Assembly: GCA_964106915.2 (NCBI GenBank)
Contig: OZ066923.1
Reading direction: 5' to 3' (one strand)
Source of the DNA: Podarcis gaigeae
Taxonomy: Eukaryota
DNA length: 64,000 nucleotides
Shown one piece after another: positions 5,016 through 32,690 of the stretch; within the stretch, counting starts at the first letter, position 1, and each line of letters opens with the position of its first letter. The position numbers and the translations under genes are program-made. The notes under the pieces were generated by a model. The model was given only the letters and a program-made list of their open reading frames with translations, did not search any database and was not told the origin of the DNA.

Positions 5016-5068
5016 CCAGTTTATGCCTTATTGGGAGCACTAAAGTGGCTGATAACTGACTTCCTCAT
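5016..5068 (+). CDS. CACNA2D4: CACNA2D4 coding exon: PVYALLGALKWLITDFL(I)
   Basis: Pyrimidine tract then aacag|, donor |gtgagt. 53 nt, phase 0 to 2, in frame with neighbours. Corresponds to human PISAFLTATRWLLQELVL. Confidence 0.9.
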
Positions 5069-8663: not shown

Positions 8664-8719
8664 ATTCTTTCTGGAGTTCAACATATCTGGCTTCTGGCAC
8701 ACAGACAATTTGGCAGATG
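8664..8719 (+). CDS. CACNA2D4: CACNA2D4 coding exon: FFLEFNISGFWHTDNLAD(A)
   Basis: cttttgacag| ... |gtgagt. 56 nt, phase 2 to 1. Corresponds to human FLLEWSVWGSWYDRGAEA. Confidence 0.9.
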
Positions 8720-9347: not shown

Positions 9348-9976
9348 AGGAACTTTCTAAATATAATTAATTCTTAATATGTTTCATTTAAAAATAATAA
9401 TAAATGGCAGAAATCATTTCAAAAGCACAATCTCATACAGCAAATGTTACTTATGGTACTGCCTGCTAGGGTTTGGCAACAGTAATATGCTGGTTACATA
9501 CATTATGTTGCTTACACATATTTTAACCAGATAGAATAGCTGTCTCTCTCTAGTCCAGGGTGTACTAGACTTGTACTTGTACTTGTTTCTGAAAGCATTG
9601 CCTGCTCCTAAACATTTAGGAGTGTGCAGGCCAAAGCTTTCAGTGTCAAATATTCTCGTATTTTTAAGTAAATCACATTCACTTCACATAGGCTTATGTG
9701 AAGGAAAGGAGGATATAAGACAATAAAACATATTTCTCATGAAACAGCAGTTTAGTTAACTGTAAAGGCAGATGAATTTTAAGGAGTAGTCTCACACTCA
9801 TTGTTGCTATTGTGAACAATTATTTCTTCTTTTCACCACCATGTCATTCTTCCTCTTTCTTTCTTCATTTCCCATTCTTCCTATTCATGTGTCTTCACCA
9901 TGGAATTCTACCACCATCTTGTGATCATCATCATGGATTCATCTGCATCACATGTTATGCCATGCAACCTGTATAG

Positions 9977-9997
9977 CCAAGGCTGTTTTCCATCATG
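9977..9997 (+). CDS. CACNA2D4: CACNA2D4 21-nt microexon: (A)KAVFHH(A)
   Basis: gtatag|CCAAGGCTGTTTTCCATCATG|gtaagt. Symmetric phase 1-1. Matches the human AKSVFHH that would otherwise be missing between the flanking exons. Confidence 0.88.
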
Positions 9998-11542
9998 GTA
10001 AGTAGAATCATTATAGTGCAGCAAAAAGATCTCCATTTTCTGGAAACAGGAGAACACCCAAGCAGATTTGTCCAGAAAACTGGGGGCAATTCCTTTCCCA
10101 CTTCACAGCTGTTCAGGAATTAGCTGTGACTGCCTAGTTGAAAACAGAGATATCACTACTTGTTTAATTATTGGGCTACCACTCACTTTGTGATTGGCAT
10201 ACTTCACTGCAAGTTTCTGCGCTTGCTGGTCCAGCTGTAACCTTGAATATAAAGATGTACAGCAGCTCTAGGGATGTGCCAATATGTGCAAACAACAGCA
10301 GCTTGTGCAAAGCATGTGGATTCACCCATATAAGCCTTGCTGAAATGAACTAAGGTTGCATGGCAGCAGTTCTTACTGGGAAATAGGCAATGGGTGGAGA
10401 ATTCTGTTGTACACTGCTAAAGTGAATCTTATATTGATATTTGCAAATCTTGCCCTTCAATATTAATGATATTTTACAGCAAGCTTGGTCCATTATAAAG
10501 GAAGAAATTAGTATTTGAAAAGTTGCAAGGTTTATCAGCATTCCATCTTCTATTCTACCCCCTCCCCCCCCCCCATTTCATTCTCAATACATTTACACAT
10601 TATACAAATGCATAGGCCTTCCTATGGTGCTTTTAATCTACAATCTGATCTTGCTATCTGTCATACTAGGCCAGACCAATAGGTGCTGCTTCTGGAGTTG
10701 GTGCCTGATGTCTCAAATAATGCTTGGTATCCCAAGGTCTAGAGGTAGAGTAAGAACTTCAAGGAGTTCTTTCCTCTGTTCAATTGTTCATGAGTGGTAA
10801 TTGAATCAGGCCAGGCCTAAGTGTTTGCATGATAATTAGCATGCTACCAGTAAACCCAACAATAGCGGGATGATGAAGAAAGGAGGAAGGGTGGACTAGG
10901 GAGATGCCACTCGTGCAAGAGAAAAGACATGGTGGTGGTTGCATCATGCAGGAAGGGAGGCAACCTTAGTTGAGCCCCAACCAGAGCTCCCATGTACTAT
11001 GGTTGCTCTAAAAGGATCCATAATAATCAGAGGATCCAGGTCAAATATGGAGCTCAGAAAGAAACACGAGAGGACTTTCTTGCATTCTCAGTAGGTACAA
11101 AATGCAAGTAGAGATAATTATCTAGAGGTGGGCAAGAATCTATCAGAAAGAAACTTCAGCCTGTTTGCAGAATTGCATGAGGACAGGTGGTGATCACTCA
11201 ACTGGAAATCCAGCAAAACTGTATTATTCAGACAACTGCAGATAGTCAGGTTCTGATCACTAGAGCAACTTCAATAAATAAGTTCATTCACTTTTCTCAT
11301 AATTTATTTATGTTAGAGAAGCAGATATGATTACAGGTTGGCTGAATAAGCAGCTCTAGCCCTTTATTCCCCCTCCACCATTCAGACAAAGGCTGGCTGA
11401 TAAATGGCTTGTCTATAGAAATAAGAAATATGGGAACTGCCCTTATGTCAATAAGATATAGCTAACCAAGATAAATATTAAAACTCTTTGCATCGTTTAC
11501 ACCATTTGTCATCATGATTAGCTACCAGTAAACCCAACAACA

Positions 11543-15000: not shown

Positions 15001-15583
15001 TTACTCAGGCTTTGTTGCTGATGCCGAAGGGCCCCCGTAACAGTTCAAGCTTCAGGGTCCCCAAAATGTAGATCTTTCCACTGCAAGTAGTCAGTTCCTA
15101 TGTTGACTAGTGGGAGCTGGGTAGTGGACTTTCTTTCTAGTAAAGGTTCCTTCTTAGGTATTTAGCTGCAGTTACTAAAGATTGGTGCTGTACTAGCCCA
15201 GCTCAGCCCGCTGTATTTCACGCAGTCACTGTCGTTAGTAAAAAGTCTTCCTGTTTCCCCCATATGAGCCACCTAGTAATGTCTTGGCCAGCTGGTTTGA
15301 TTCTAACCATGAACTAACTGCAAGTGGTTTCCCACCTGTTTGTGTGTTTTGACTTTCTAGCAGTAAACAGCCTGTCAGACTGATAGCTACATAATCTGAC
15401 CATTGGCTGAAGGGTGGCCATATTCATGCTTCTAGGGCATCCTCATACACTGAGTCTCCCACACCACCTAGTGGCTGCCAGTAATCTTCGTTTTTGGGTC
15501 AACATCTTTCCGCTTCTTTTTTCCACACCTCATTTGTTTCCTTCACCTGATTTTCTCACTCAGCCTCTTTTTCCCCATCTCAG

Positions 15584-15701
15584 CTCACAAGCACAAGAAG
15601 CACGACATGCTACAGCCATGTGACACAGAATACCCAGTGTTTGTATATGAACCTGCCATCAAAGAGACCAATGGGATTATTGAATGCGGAGACTGTCAGA
15701 A
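15584..15701 (+). CDS. CACNA2D4: CACNA2D4 coding exon: [38 protein letters not shown](K)
   Basis: ccccatctcag| ... |gtaaga. 118 nt, phase 1 to 2. Matches human [39 protein letters not shown]. Confidence 0.96.
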
Positions 15702-19688: not shown

Positions 19689-19801
19689 GATGTTTGTGGT
19701 GCAGCAAATTACCAACAGCAATCTCCTGCTCCTGGTTGTGGATGCTGTATGTGACTGCAGCAACTTTCCACCTGTCCTACTGCAACCTAAAGAAGTGAAA
19801 T
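19689..19801 (+). CDS. CACNA2D4: CACNA2D4 coding exon: [37 protein letters not shown](Y)
   Basis: ccttacag| acceptor; ends at the U12-type donor |ATATCTTT. 113 nt, phase 2 to 1. Matches human [38 protein letters not shown]. Confidence 0.95.
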
Positions 19802-21614
19802 ATATCTTTCTGCTAGTAGACGTTGTACTGGGCTGTACAGTTCTTGTGGTTTATAGTTTTCCAACAGTGAATTGATGCAGAGGGTTTGCTTTAGTAGTTC
19901 TTTGGGGTGGGAAGAATTTGGCATACGTTCTAGTGGAAAGCATGGCAAAAGCAATGGCAAGTTAATGTGCTGCTAATTATGATTGCGTACTGTTGTTTGG
20001 TAAGTGCTATATGGATTGATTGTGTGCATTTTTCTAGATACCTCCTCAATTGCTGGAAAGGAGGTAGAAAGAAAAAGCACAGGGGTACCAGGCATAAGAT
20101 GGAAAGAGAAATCAGACTTGCTATTTAGTTTTTAAACTCTCTTTAGAACCTGAAAATAGTCTTCACTCTGAAGTATGCCCCCCCCCCCAGTTCTGTGTAG
20201 ATGAAGATGCTGTTGGTTTCATTAGCATTTGCAAAATAGAAGCCTAATTAAGGAAGGAGTCCTAGGTCAATGGTGGACCATGTGCTTTGTGTACCATAAT
20301 ACATTAATACTGTGTGAGATGGACCAATGGACTTATTTGCTGTAAGCCAGTGAACGGTACAGAAAGATGTTGTGCATTGCAGCTCCAAAATGCCAGGGTG
20401 AAACTGCTTTTTACGGGAGCTACTTCTTCCCATGTGGGCACGTGTTTTCTTTTTACAGTTGAAGGGACTCTTGTTCTGGAACAGAACCATGGCATAGATG
20501 CACAGGACACCAACAGGCTTCAGGGATATTTACATTGGGGCAGTGGTGTGTATGTTTGTGGGGGAAAGAGTGGTTATTTAAAAAACTTGCAAGGAAGAAC
20601 TTCTTTTAAAGGCATACACATGAAACTATGAAGACACATTTAATATAACAGTAAGTTTCTCCTTCAGTAGACAAATTTTAGCTCTGCAGCAACAGTGCTG
20701 GAAAAAAAATGTAGATTGTAGCCCTAATTTTGCTCAAGGTGGTTGTGACTAACTTATGTCCCATTGTTTCCAGTAGGTCTTACCCCTCGCTAACTGCTCC
20801 TGGAGTGGAGCTCGCTCATTAAGTGTGATCACTAGCCTTGAAAGCTGCTGCTTGGTTCTGCAGCCACCCATGATGGCTCCATTCCAACTAAAATCATGTT
20901 GAAATCAAGTTGGCCCAAGTTAAAATGAAGTTTCAATAGAATTTAAGCAGTGTTCAGATTAAACTATGCTCAAAAATCCTAGCTGATGTTAATTGAGCCC
21001 ACCTACTTACCAGGTGTAGGGACGTGGGTGGCACTGTGGGTTAAACCACAGAGCCCAGGACTTGCAGATCAGAAGGTCGGCGGTTCGAATCAACCACAAT
21101 GGGGTGAGCTCCCATTGTTCGGTCCCTGCTCCTCCCAACCTAGCAGTTTGAAAGCACGTCAAAGTGCAAGTAGATATATAGGTACCACTCTGGCGGGAAG
21201 GTAACCGGCGTTTCCGTGTGCTGCTCTGGTTAGTCATGCTGGCCACATGACCCGGAAGCTGTACGCTGGCTCCCTCGGCCATTAAAGCAAGATGAGCACC
21301 GCAACCCCAGAATCTGCCACAGCTGGACCTTATGGTCAAGGATACCTTTACTTACCAGGTGTAGCATAAGTATTTTGAGAAATGTCCTGCCTGTGACAGC
21401 ACCCTTTATGCTAGAATGAGTGCATGGCATTCCATGTGAGTAGAGGCCTTGCAGTAGCTTCATAATCAAGGGCACCTCTATGGGAATACATCTTATGACT
21501 TGTACAGCCTAGTTGTAAACTGGAATTCTGGGACAACACAGCTCCTCCATAAATGGGATTGTTTCTGATTTTCACCATTTCCCCAAACTGCTATTAACCT
21601 TAACAGCACTGCAC
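19802..21614 (+). other. CACNA2D4: U12-type (minor spliceosome) AT-AC intron of CACNA2D4
   Basis: The 5' end is ATATCTTTC (consensus RTATCCTTT). The branch site CCTTAAC lies at 21598-21604, 10 nt before the end of the intron, which terminates in AC (21613-21614). There is no polypyrimidine tract. Splicing T|AT rebuilds the Tyr of EVKY-NASVKC. Confidence 0.92.
21020..21348 (+). mobile_element. Full-length Sauria SINE with 16-bp TSD, inside the U12 intron
   Basis: TSD TACTTACCAGGTGTAG at 21004-21019 and 21349-21364. Typical head, core and tail. Confidence 0.92.
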
Positions 21615-21697
21615 ATAATGCGTCAGTGAAATGTGACAGGATGCGCTCCCAGAAGCTGAGGCGGCGACCAGATACCTGCCATGCATTCCATCCTGAG
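21615..21697 (+). CDS. CACNA2D4: CACNA2D4 penultimate coding exon: [27 protein letters not shown]
   Basis: Near-identical to human [29 protein letters not shown] acceptor, |gtaagg donor. 83 nt, phase 1 to 0. Confidence 0.96.
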
Positions 21698-22192: not shown

Positions 22193-22288
22193 GAAAACGC
22201 CCAGGACTGTGGAGGAGCGGCAGAGATTTCTGCCTCATTAGCCCTGCTCTTCCTTCCTCTGGGAACCACAGCTCTTCTCTTGCGGTGA
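22193..22288 (+). CDS. CACNA2D4: CACNA2D4 last coding exon: ENAQDCGGAAEISASLALLFLPLGTTALLLR* (GPI-anchor-signal-like tail)
   Basis: tttgtttttcag| acceptor and TGA at 22286-22288. A CGGA omega-site-like motif followed by a hydrophobic tail is typical of alpha2delta subunits. Confidence 0.95.
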   Translation, partial: ENAQDCGGAAEISASLALLFLPLGTTALLLR

Positions 22289-26814: not shown

Positions 26815-27453
26815 CTATGGGAGAAAGAAAAACAGAACACCATTTCACCTTAGGTAATGGAGACTCCCATTTTCCAGAACAGTCACCAAAGGAGGGCATC
26901 ACAGGTGGTACTGGCTAGTAAGTAGAGATTGTGAAGTATCAACCAGCCAAAGAATAAGCCCTCTTGCTTCCTAGGAATCCATTGTTTGTTTCTCTGCTAT
27001 GCAAGCACCAGGAGGTGCCAATTTAAACCCACCCAGCCCCAGTCAACTTGGCATAACTGGCTAGAGGACAAGATACATGCTCACATACACATAAACAAAC
27101 AAAGACAGAGCATTAACAGCGCTGTATCAGAATGGTTGTATTTTTGCAGCTGTGCACCATTCCCTCTCTTGGGAGCCAGATATGCCAAGGCAGATAGAGT
27201 GCAAATATTTTTCATTCTTGTAATGCCTACCAAGAGAAGGTTGCAGAGTTTCACAGGGTTTTAAAGTTAGCAGTTGCACAGCAGGGCTCCATTTTAGCCC
27301 AGAACTGAGCAGTAAGAGGCATTTATAGAACTGCGTCTTTATAGAGCTCGGCCACAGACCACAGTGATCCATCACTGCAGATATGCAGTAGGGATGGCAT
27401 TAATGCCTCTCACCCTCCCTATTATGTGCCTGCCATCTATTAGCCATACTTAC

Positions 27454-27647
27454 CCAGATGTCACACTTGCCCGGGAAGAACCTCTCCGGGATGCGAGCAG
27501 CATACAGTGCAGCGCCAGTGATATACAGGCAGGCCATGAGAGCCAGCCAGCCTATCTGCCCCATTGTGGCAGCCTTGAGGAGCCCTTCCGTGATGACAAA
27601 GTGCAGGGTGGGGATGACCCCACTAAGGCCCAGAGCCAGAAACACTC
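27454..27647 (-). CDS. ADIPOR2: ADIPOR2 coding exon: VFLALGLSGVIPTLHFVITEGLLKAATMGQIGWLALMACLYITGAALYAARIPERFFPGKCDIW
   Basis: ctcctag| ... |gtaagt. 194 nt. Carries the PAQR PERxxPG motif. Confidence 0.97.
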
Positions 27648-28433
27648 CTAGGAGATAAGGGAAGTGGGACAGATTCAGCCTTGGACACAAGAGAAGCAGT
27701 GGCAGAGATGAGGGCAAACTGCCAAAGCTCAGGATCCCAAAGCAGAGCAGGAAGATTACTTGGGTGGTTGGTTTTTAGGGCCACAACCCATTTGGTCAAC
27801 TAGAGAGGAGCCCCTGATCAATCTGGGAACACATTTTTTTTAAAAATAATAATTTCTATGTACTTCTAATCATAGTGCTAAATGTCATTTTAGAAGAGGC
27901 ATTCTCTCTTCTGTTGCAACCAGGAGGCATATTCTCCTTCAATACTTTGCCTGCTGCAGCACATACTTGTGTGTGTGTGCACGCGCACGCGCGCGCACAC
28001 ACGCACACAGATAAACACACACACACCACTTAAATACTAGATAAAGAAAGTATGCTTTTCCATTCCAAAGTCATCATTTTATTCAAGTGACTTTTATTAT
28101 GCAGATCATTTAAAATTGCAATCACCCAACTATAATTTCTTTAATTAGACAAAATTCTTTTTGTTGTAGAAATATGTTAATATACCTCTAGCTTTCTAAG
28201 TACACTAGAGACTGTAGCACAAGCCTTGAAATAAAGACTCCCTGCCAGTGGGCTGTGAGTGGCAGAAAGAACTTTGGCCTTCATGTACCACTGACTGACC
28301 AAAAAAGTACAGCACTTACATCAGTCGTGGAAGAATAAACTTCAAAGGTGTTTTGTCTGCTCCAGCCCACAGATTGAACTGACAGTTCATGATAATTAAA
28401 ACCTTCAATATTTGCAAAATAGTATTCCCAGTA

Positions 28434-28635
28434 CAGTGGTACCTCAGGTTACATACTTTGGGTTACAGACTCCGCTAACCCGGAAGTAGTACCTCGGGTT
28501 AAGAACTTTACCTCAGGATGAGAACAGCAGGAGGAGGAGGCCCCATTAGCTAAAGTGGTACCTCAGGTTAAGAATGGTTTCAGGTTAAGAACGGACCTTC
28601 GGAACGAATTAAGTTCGTAATCAAAAGTACCACTG
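28434..28635. mobile_element. Tc1/mariner (Tigger/pogo-like) MITE, TA TSD
   Basis: TA|CAGTGGTACCTC ... AAGTACCACTG|TA, with internal ctcaggttaagaa repeats. Confidence 0.85.
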
Positions 28636-30017
28636 TACTAAGTTTCAATTGCTATATATTTCATCTCCTGATCCTCTGTATAAATTTACAACTTCCTGGA
28701 AGGTACAGAAATATTCTAGAACAAATTCTTCAAACTTCCAGCAGGCAAATGAGACTTTCCCCCCTGAATTCATGACTACATTCACATTCTGTGTGTGTGC
28801 ACATGCACACATGCAAGAATTTCACCTTCCCTCGGAGAAGTCCTTCCCATGCACTGCTACAGGAGTTACTGTTCCAAGTGTGCCTCCCAATTGGAAGGAG
28901 ACAAAGTCCAGAGCAGCAATTTTTGTAGAGATTCAGCAAGTAGCATCCTCTGCACTGGAGTATTAGAAAAACCTAATCATTTCCAAAAGCAGAGATGGAC
29001 AGAACAAAGTCTCCATCCTCCTGTAAAGATGGAATGGAAAGGAAGGCAGGCAGGCTGGATCGGTGGAATAAGCATCTTGGCTAGGAGTCCTTGTCTTTCT
29101 GGCCTTTTTTCCACCTGGCCGGGAAAGGCAGGGCCCTGACTCCAGCTACAAAAACTGAGGCGACTGAACAGACTGTTGGGCTGGGGCGTTGTTTAGCGTG
29201 TTTTGTTTGGAGAGGTGTGTGTTGCTGTTATTGATATAATTTTTTGCATCTTATTTTAGATCTTATGATCTATGTGGAAATGTTCAATTTGGATGTGTAC
29301 TTTTTGAAATTTTATTTATGGTTGAAAATTACTTTTGCTATGTAATTATGTATTATTTTTTTCATGTTGTAAGCTGCCTTAAGCATGGTTTAAACTACGG
29401 AAAGGTGGCATACAAATAAAATGCTGAATGTGTGTATGTCTGTAACAGCAAACAGCTTCCCTGCAGGCAGATGTTTTTCGTCCTTAGGAGATTCTTTTTC
29501 TTTCAGTTCCCTCATGATAAAATTGGGAAACTACTGCACTAGAAGATGCATTTAGGGTTTTGATTTTAAACAATATCTTATCCTAAATTATCCTCCTGCC
29601 TGACTTTCTAGCTTCCTCAGACCTAGCCAGAATTTAGAGCCATTATGAAAGATGGCATCCAGCTAAGCTGATGAGTCATTTTCACAAATTGTGTTCATTG
29701 GACAGACTTGGCATTTACAGCCAGAATCCTTAACTTATTGTCATCCAAACAAGATGTCACATAATGAGTACTACAAGTTAATCATACAAAAAAAAGGGGG
29801 GGGAGAACAGTGCAAATTAAAACACAAATGATGCAGGCACAAGGAATCTTGTGGCATCTAAATACCAACCAATTTATTATGTATCCATGAAGGGAGGCCC
29901 ATGTATAAGGTGCATGAAGCACTAACTATCCACAACTAGTGGATTCTCTGTACACATAAAGAATGAAGAGTGTAAACTTTTCGAGGCCTGTTTGGGGTCT
30001 ACATTTTGCTGTATGTA

Positions 30018-30260
30018 CAGTCATACCTCATGTTATATTTGCTTCATGTTACGTTTTCTCAGGTTGCGTCCCACAGCAACCCGGAAGTACCGGAAAGGGT
30101 TACTTCCGGGTTTCACCGCTCACGCATGCGCAGTAGCGCTAAATCGCACTTCGTGCATGCGCACAAGCGGCAAATTGCGCTGCGCACCTGCACAGATACA
30201 GCGCTTCAGGTTGCGGGCTTTTCATGTTGCGAACGGGCCTCCGGAATGGAGGTACCACTG
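30018..30260. mobile_element. Tc1/mariner (Tigger/pogo-like) MITE, TA TSD, CpG-rich
   Basis: TA|CAGTCATACCTC ... GAGGTACCACTG|TA. Confidence 0.82.
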
Positions 30261-30634
30261 TATATCTGTCTGTACACAAATATACACAAATACGCCATAA
30301 GCATGGCTAATGGAAGGCAACACATCACGGACGGTGACTTTAACTCACAAAAACTTGTGTCGCTATAAATCTGAATATGGAACATTAAAGAAGTTTTGTT
30401 GCAGACAGATATGGCTACCTCTCTGGAACCTGACATTATGCAAATATGACTGGCAGATTAGGAGTGTCAAACTTTTAATCTATGAGTGCGCGCACACTCC
30501 GTTCAAAGTTACATTTAAAAAAATAGCACCATGCATAAGTAAGTTCAGCACTTTGTTCCAATTTGGAATAAAATTTCAGACCAAATCCCTTCATGTGGAG
30601 GAAAGCATTTTAGAAGTGATCCTTTGAGTCTTAC

Positions 30635-30822
30635 CTGCCCGTACTGCTCGATACTGGGGGGTTGCAAACCTGTCCCATTGGGAAACTATAATGGCTGTGA
30701 TGCCCAGGACACAGATGACAATCAAGTAGATGAAGCAGGGCTGAGGGTTGCAATAGAAGGAGTAGTAGAGCCATGGGACAAAACTGCCCATAATGAGAAG
30801 GGCGATGCCAGAGTAGTCCAGT
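30635..30822 (-). CDS. ADIPOR2: ADIPOR2 coding exon: LDYSGIALLIMGSFVPWLYYSFYCNPQPCFIYLIVICVLGITAIIVSQWDRFATPQYRAVRA(G)
   Basis: ttgccttag| ... |gtaaga. 188 nt. Carries the LDYSGI motif. Confidence 0.97.
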
Positions 30823-31251
30823 CTAAGGCAAGGGAAGAGAGGGGGAAAGTTGTTTCAGGAAGGTCACATGAAATAGCCTGCTCACTGATTGCACAGCCTC
30901 CACAGCACCCAACAAGCCTAGCCTAGTTGCATCATTGTCCAGCTTCTGGTGCAAAACTTCTGTGGCTAATAAGGTTCCTACTGTGACCACCCCTAAACAG
31001 CAACTTCAAAATATTAGCAAAGGCAGACAAACCTTAGGAGAAGAGCTCTGATCTAAATTCTTTCATCTTGGCCTGCTAACCACAATGTCAGGAATATGGG
31101 CAGCCTATCAATCGCTGAAGTAGAGCTCTTAGGCAAATTCCAGTTTCTCAGCCTGGACCCAACAGCTAAGCATTAATACACTGACAATTTTCATAGTGCT
31201 TCACATACATTTTCTGGCTCTGAAGTCACACTGAACCACTACAATACTTAC

Positions 31252-31438
31252 TTGGAGAATAGTCTTGAGACACCTTCTGAATGGCAGTAAACTGTGTGGA
31301 AGAGCCATGAGAAGGAGAGGCAGAGAATGGCTCCCAAGAAGAACACTCCAACCACTACCTTCTCTTGTACAGGTGCTACAAAGGACATGTTTGGCCGGAA
31401 CATGTAAAAGATGCCCAGACACAGAAAGAACACACAAC
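31252..31438 (-). CDS. ADIPOR2: ADIPOR2 coding exon: CVFFLCLGIFYMFRPNMSFVAPVQEKVVVGVFFLGAILCLSFSWLFHTVYCHSEGVSRLFS(K)
   Basis: ctttgtttag| ... |gtaagt. 187 nt. Carries the SxxxH motif (SWLFH). Sequence is ADIPOR2-type rather than ADIPOR1-type. Confidence 0.97.
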
Positions 31439-32690
31439 CTAAACAAAGAAAAATAAATGTTACAAGACCGAAGTTTGTGCATGTGTAGCGGGAGAACCCC
31501 AAAAAAGCATCACAGCAAATTCAGTACACTTGAGAAATGTCATCTGTCACATTTCTGTAGATCATTCGACTTAACATTTGCAAATCATTGAGTGAGGTAC
31601 TACATATACTTTCAACAGCTTTGGGAAACCCCTGGCCACATTATGCACATCATGTTAAAATATGGTTTAGTGTGTTGTGCATGGAGTGGAACATGGTGGA
31701 ATGGGTGGCCTGATATAAAGCTGGAAACAGATTCAATTTGCTGTTTGTCTGCATTATTTCTCCCAAGTATTACGAGGCAGGGTGGTGTAGCGTACAGAAG
31801 TTGGGCTGGCACAAATATGACCAATCAATGAACCAAAGGGCTTTAGGTTTATTCCAACCTAAATGTTCTGCCAAGCAAAACAGTTGCTGACAATAATGTT
31901 TAAAGTATGCAAGCTTAGCTCTAGTTCCATCCTCCCCAATGAGCCAAACAGAATATGGTCACTGCAATGCCAACTGAAGCTAATTTGAGGCCTGTTTCAT
32001 CATTAGTCCCAAGAGCCAGGAAAGGTCCAGTAAGCACAGGCAATTAAGCTTATTTCAAGGGCAATGCTGCAGTGAGAAAGCCACACAGAAGTACAAAGCA
32101 CACAATTTTTCTGCAGCATTGCAATTCAGATGTCCCAGGTTGAAGCCTTGGACCAAGGTCCTGACTCAGAGCAGCACATGCATACCAAAGTGTTTACATT
32201 TTCTTCCTAAAAGCTATTAGTGAACAGCAGTGTTGGAGCAGAAATCTGAATTATCTTTCTGGACTACAGGAAGAGGATTCATGTAGATCTGCCAAGTCAA
32301 TCTGAGCATCCTCAAAACATCAGTGATGGGGTGAGGGGAGTACAACACAAACAGAAAAGGGGGAATTTGCACATCTGAGTAATTCAAACCAAGTTAGTTG
32401 GTGCTGAACAAAGAGAAGTTATTCTACCGAACAGGCATTTAGTAAGATTACTGAAGGGGAAAGTCACTGCAACCCAATGCAACCCTTTGTCCAGGATCCA
32501 TCTATGCAAGTATAATTCACCCCAAACTCTTGCCCAACATTTCCTGTAGAGTCCTGTCAGATGTGCTCCAGGCAATCTTGCTCTTGCTATTGGATCAGCA
32601 GTAAGTTCCAAAGTCTATTTCCTTTGCTTCTTAACTCAGTTATTAGTTATAAAAGATAAATTCCTATGACATTTACATCCAAGTCAATAC

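Follow-up and report, generated by a model that had tools for sequence, protein, structure and literature searches.

Alpha2delta-4, which is mutated in cone dystrophy, is a calcium-channel subunit, and the locus described here raises the question of whether the splicing of a very short exon could act on its processing into alpha2 and delta. The window, a 64,000-nucleotide stretch of Podarcis gaigeae contig OZ066923.1 (assembly GCA_964106915.2), contains a 21-nt microexon at positions 9977–9997 (+), and the original prediction was that this exon sits at the alpha2/delta cleavage junction of alpha2delta-4 and could tune cleavage or activation.

The identification of the host gene as CACNA2D4 is borne out by the 118-nt exon downstream of the microexon, which finds its matches in alpha2delta-4 proteins from squamates, birds, turtles, and amphibians as well as one fish and one mammal, with 100% identity to Podarcis entries P0001 and P0004; distinct CACNA2D1, CACNA2D2, and CACNA2D3 loci, named by their likeness to quoted motifs and PDB chains, are also present at separate positions in the same genome. 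All of the coding exons recognized are on the plus strand. Exons of 76 nt (1564–1639) and 53 nt (5016–5068, the equivalent of the mouse forward-primer site) precede the 56-nt upstream exon (FFLEFNISGFWHTDNLAD; 8664–8719), the predicted alpha2-4 C-terminus. Beyond the microexon lies the downstream exon (15584–15701; HKHKKHD...PCDTEYP), which includes the first delta cysteine and has a mouse counterpart of 118 nt, followed by delta coding exons at 19689–19801 and 21615–21697 and by the last coding exon (22193–22288), which encodes a hydrophobic tail and runs to the stop codon. The intron at 19802–21614 (+) has AT...AC ends; it starts with atatcttt and has CCTTAAC, which resembles a branch point, close to its 3' end, and by its consensus we take it to be of the minor-spliceosome (U12) type; its split codon is the Tyr between EVK and NASVKC. 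On the minus strand, three exons at 27445–31442 match Pfam PF03006 (HlyIII) and converge on the CACNA2D4 3' end, and these presumably belong to ADIPOR2, given the synteny.

The microexon is bounded by ag/CC...TG/gtaagt (slashes mark exon borders), is in frame with phases 1-1, and adds A-KAVFHH to the alpha2/delta linker; the upstream exon ends in GAT G/gt and the downstream exon begins at ag/CT CAC. By these borders and split codons, the predicted symmetry of the exon is exact, and skipping leaves the frame intact while shortening the junction peptide from 19 to 12 letters. The accompanying claim of Ala at both joins is correct for this genome, where the split codons are GCC and GCT, but fails as a general statement, with Ser at the second junction residue in 24 of 41 microexon-bearing proteins. 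Splice signals are insufficient to single out the microexon, because six stretches of the 6,864-nt host intron qualify as candidate in-frame mini-exons under a loose rule; the microexon has the best donor score among them (10.5).

Spliced contigs and homologous proteins establish it as a real, conserved in-frame exon of CACNA2D4. In contigs of all four runs compared (three studies, two other organisms), the upstream exon and the microexon stand directly before the downstream exon; the RNA status of the runs is presumed, and the contigs nevertheless join exon to exon. The comparison covered the downstream exon and its flanks. Among the lizard-like runs, in which contigs drop rare forms, none gave a contig with the microexon skipped. 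One contig of run X1 crosses the intron into the downstream exon (window 15440–15612) and represents unspliced RNA or DNA. Among 120 listed homologous proteins, K[AS][VF]FHH[AS] stands at the microexon position in 41, the flanking exons are joined without it in 27 (some of which may be annotation misses), and the other 52, being fragments or odd gene models, match neither form; the intron-derived or missing junction sequence of these last indicates that gene-prediction programs often go wrong at the 56-nt exon and at the microexon. The motif is also present in 34 of 34 proteins chosen for a linker seven residues longer, that is, by length and not by letters. The K, F, H, and H are invariant across amphibians, a mammal, birds, and squamates, yet the microexon, at 0.90, is conserved no better than its downstream neighbours, at 0.89, in a set selected on the microexon letters. 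A figure legend in Matalkah 2022 (PMC9509328, available in part) reports the exon back to cartilaginous fish. Spliced contigs and conservation rule out a chance splice-site pair; that the exon is unannotated is ruled out as well, P0004 and 40 other protein models carrying it.

The exon also has a published history. Murphy 2016 (PMC4991804) describes, in the portion available, a 21-nt Cacna2d4 exon of mouse with flanking exons of 53 and 118 nt, included at 0.82–0.90 in wild-type retina versus 0–0.12 in photoreceptor-less Aipl1-/- retina. The photoreceptor-specific mouse microexon is at mm10 chr6:119,345,430-450, and Matalkah 2022 (PMC9509328) verified its presence in zebrafish and generated mice from which it was deleted. 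Translated mouse primers map to the window exons at 5016–5068 and 15584–15701, and, placed on the lizard layout with the 53-nt mouse exon, the published primers give products of 200 and 221 bp, which are the printed sizes. The peptides encoded by the zebrafish primers come from those same flanking exons as well; the amplicon of these primers on the lizard exons is 263 by best DNA match or 257 when the peptides are placed by hand, against a printed 271. Exon length, flanks, and primer geometry make it nearly certain that the lizard microexon is the orthologue of the published photoreceptor exon. It is thus already known: published, annotated in homologues, and called dispensable. A word check of the available main text of PMC9509328 found the microexon not related there to cleavage.

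Signals around the microexon bear on its regulation. The 3' splice region (9790–9976, +) extends for 187 nt without another AG, with a distant pyrimidine-rich stretch (71% over -200 to -60) and UGC motifs at -33, -19, and -14. UGC is the motif bound by SRRM3/4 (PMC9303857, seen in part); two lie within 30 nt, versus 0.6 expected from the host intron, numbers too few for significance. The 5' splice site is a strong gtaagt (9998–10020, +), with UAG at +6 and +17, and there are four UAG in the downstream 150 nt versus 2.4 expected. Cacna2d4 is absent from those parts of the Musashi splicing tables that were searched, and in the available text of PMC9509328 its microexon is not among the exons named as lowered in the Msi1/2 double knockout. 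The 18 supplementary files of the RetMIC paper (PMC9303857), so far as available, have Cacna2d4 in gene-expression rows only, among the matches listed. From the motifs we infer that inclusion may be driven by SRRM3/4 rather than by Musashi.

The position of the exon relative to the alpha2/delta cut was examined by comparison with the paralogues. Kadurin 2016 (PMC5092059, consulted as an incomplete text) places the cut of rat alpha2delta-1 at LEA//VEM and shows that alpha2delta-3 is no longer cleaved once its MTAKAQ is replaced; one review (PMC4042065, in the part available) places the rabbit cut one residue earlier. Alpha2delta-1 and -3 are cut by ADAM17 at sequences that are unlike each other (PMC5092059, PMC9016415, both in part). 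In this genome, CACNA2D1 to CACNA2D4 each have, ahead of the alpha2/delta junction, an exon that is always 56 nt long and keeps the same phases. CACNA2D1 here reads ...FPRFLSA/V-EMEEED, the Val codon being divided by the intron, so that the exon border coincides with the mapped cut. In CACNA2D4 the 56-nt exon closes with ...TDNLAD, and the codon divided there encodes the first Ala of the microexon.

Three registers can be drawn from these data. Anchored on the exon border and free of gaps, the first predicts NLAD//AKAVFHH; HMMER alignment to rabbit alpha2delta-1 sets LADA-K on LLEA-A, giving LADA//KAV; and alpha2delta-3 MTAKAQ aligns without gaps to NLADAK, the centre being NLA//DAK. The three are independent, and in each the homologous cut lies no more than one residue from the codon that is split at the start of the microexon. 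This agrees with the original prediction of a place at the junction and fixes that place more narrowly than the prediction did, and the alignment to alpha2delta-1/2/3 that had been proposed as a check recovers a homologous junction border with the same intron phase. Because the paralogue 56-nt exon border carries the alpha2delta-1 cut, the microexon is predicted to encode the residues with which delta-4 would begin, provided that alpha2delta-4 is processed in the same way as its paralogues. By the same loose rule, no matching microexon was found in the junction introns of CACNA2D1–3 of this genome (0 of 3 introns). Lizard alpha2delta-3 has LTTKAQ where rodents have MTAKAQ, a difference that favours K-A or A-Q over A-K as its cut.

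The same prediction took cleavage to be needed for current enhancement by alpha2delta proteins at large. This stands for alpha2delta-1 and -3, whose uncleaved forms do not enhance currents (PMC5092059, as far as available), and is confined to them; our literature search found neither a published site nor a published need of cleavage for alpha2delta-4. A band of ~130 kDa for alpha2delta-4 on a reducing gel (PMC10174292, in part) is ambiguous as to cleavage.

Structural models and linker composition bear on what the insertion could do. The AlphaFold model of the lizard orthologue P0027 has a mean pLDDT of 87.4 and an alpha2delta-1 fold, its best PDB matches being alpha2delta-1 (TM 0.74). Residues 951–972 are the only internal stretch with pLDDT below 50, and the microexon occupies 962–968; it is therefore predicted to lie in a flexible loop before the first delta cysteine. 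In alpha2delta-1 structures the cut region is likewise not resolved, according to the accessible part of PMC9016415. A PDB search with the 38-aa exon gave no match, and there was no alpha2delta-3 or -4 chain among the 14 PDB matches for the full protein. With the microexon included, the linker grows from 19 to 26 residues and its His count rises from 4 to 6, both added His and the Phe being invariant. The A-V pair of the microexon is the linker's only small-hydrophobic bond and resembles LEA~VEME of alpha2delta-1 and IEA~VKSE of Notch. ADAM proteases have no strict consensus; these two sites would fit a putative preference for a small P1 and a hydrophobic P1' residue. Since an A/S-hydrophobic pair is present in 22% of the 7-mers of these proteins, the likeness to ADAM17 sites is weak, and our literature search gave no paper on ADAM17 subsite preferences.

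We favour, at a probability of roughly 0.45, the reading that the microexon, at a position homologous to the alpha2delta-1 cut, may tune but does not gate a predicted processing of alpha2delta-4. By analogy with alpha2delta-1 and -3, the protein would be cut in the linker loop by an ADAM-type protease; the microexon would supply the new N-terminus of delta, from P1' to about P7' immediately beyond the cleaved bond; the lengthening from 19 to 26 residues would change the efficiency or the exact position of the cut; and the skipped form would still be cut. Any such effect is most likely modest.

How far this is constrained by the mouse depends on what was recorded. Exon-knockout mice show no significant ERG change over 1–12 months and normal histology (Matalkah 2022, PMC9509328, in the text available), and the A-wave, which is normal, is the only measure plotted and tabulated there. 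The cone-only alpha2delta-4 null keeps an unchanged A-wave but has about half the b-wave, 137 vs 282 uV (PMC10174292, in part), and the alpha2delta-4 null has a reduced or lost b-wave. Because loss of alpha2delta-4 itself spares the A-wave, the published knockout does not settle the role of the microexon, and it limits large effects only loosely, although a synaptic defect of any great size would probably have shown up in the ERG traces.

The absence of a reported knockout phenotype does argue against a strong switch, and this weighs on the alternative of strict gating, in which the microexon would itself carry the protease site (A/S-V/F), only the included form would be cleaved and active, and skipping would yield an inactive or inhibitory pro-form. 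The linker's only A-V bond does lie in the microexon, it does resemble the alpha2delta-1 and Notch ADAM17 sites, and uncleaved alpha2delta-1 and -3 give no current enhancement (PMC5092059). On such a scheme, though, the exon knockout should mimic the alpha2delta-4 null, with the b-wave reduced or lost, and the available report describes nothing of the kind; alpha2delta-3, moreover, is cut without such a bond. That ADAM17 cuts alpha2delta-3, which has no microexon and whose linker falls short of even the skipped alpha2delta-4 linker, also argues against a switch role. We regard this alternative as very improbable. A related proposal—that the microexon writes both the delta-4 protease site and the N-terminus, that splicing sets alpha2delta-4 maturation and thereby the ribbon-synapse Cav1.4 current, and that the A-wave-only knockout missed this—we would give a small chance.

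At the other extreme, the insertion may be a near-neutral spacer that the flexible loop tolerates, with both forms cut and working alike and the letters kept only since changes would harm the protein or splicing. A neutral exon is the alternative that the knockout authors themselves raise (PMC9509328, in part), and it suits their phenotype-free animals, the predicted disorder of the loop, and the paralogues that function with no such exon. Invariance of K, F, H, and H across amphibians, squamates, birds, and a mammal, together with the reported presence of the exon in cartilaginous fish (same source), pulls the other way, and the knockout was reported by A-waves, which the alpha2delta-4 null spares; we therefore hold the spacer to be possible but doubtful. 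An effect independent of cleavage efficiency is also conceivable, through the His/basic patch (HHAHKHKKH) at the delta N-terminus acting on metal, cleft pH, or a synaptic partner. Protons and zinc serve as feedback signals at photoreceptor synapses, and such a role would fit the rise from 4 to 6 linker His and the invariance of the two added His and the Phe. The patch is putative and lies in a loop that is unstructured in the model, the exon knockout was normal as tested (PMC9509328, in part), and we judge this role unlikely.

To the known exon the present analysis adds two points: it is placed at the very exon border where alpha2delta-1 is cut, and the published knockout was reported by the A-wave, which is insensitive to alpha2delta-4 loss. 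Neither the link nor the blind spot was found in print among the openly available papers and supplements searched. If the microexon altered cleavage, this would be a case of splicing control over the proteolytic activation of a channel subunit. The odds are modest, and the existing exon-knockout mouse line makes the cleavage hypothesis cheap to test.

Compared with known systems, the lizard microexon is like that of mouse and zebrafish Cacna2d4 in gene, in its 21-nt length, and in its place between 53/56-nt and 118-nt exons, and differs in that a photoreceptor-specific pattern is known for mouse whereas splicing of the lizard exon is seen in contigs of related organisms that carry no tissue record. 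It shares with the SRRM3/4-dependent RetMICs (PMC9303857) its shortness, its frame, and, in numbers too few for significance, UGC near the 3' splice site; among the matches listed from the available files of that study, Cacna2d4 is not seen as a listed exon. The alpha2delta-1 linker is acidic and unlike the alpha2delta-4 sequence, but the junctions of alpha2delta-1 and -3 have in common with that of alpha2delta-4 a homologous exon border, the same intron phase, and a loop before the first delta Cys that in alpha2delta-4 is predicted to be flexible.
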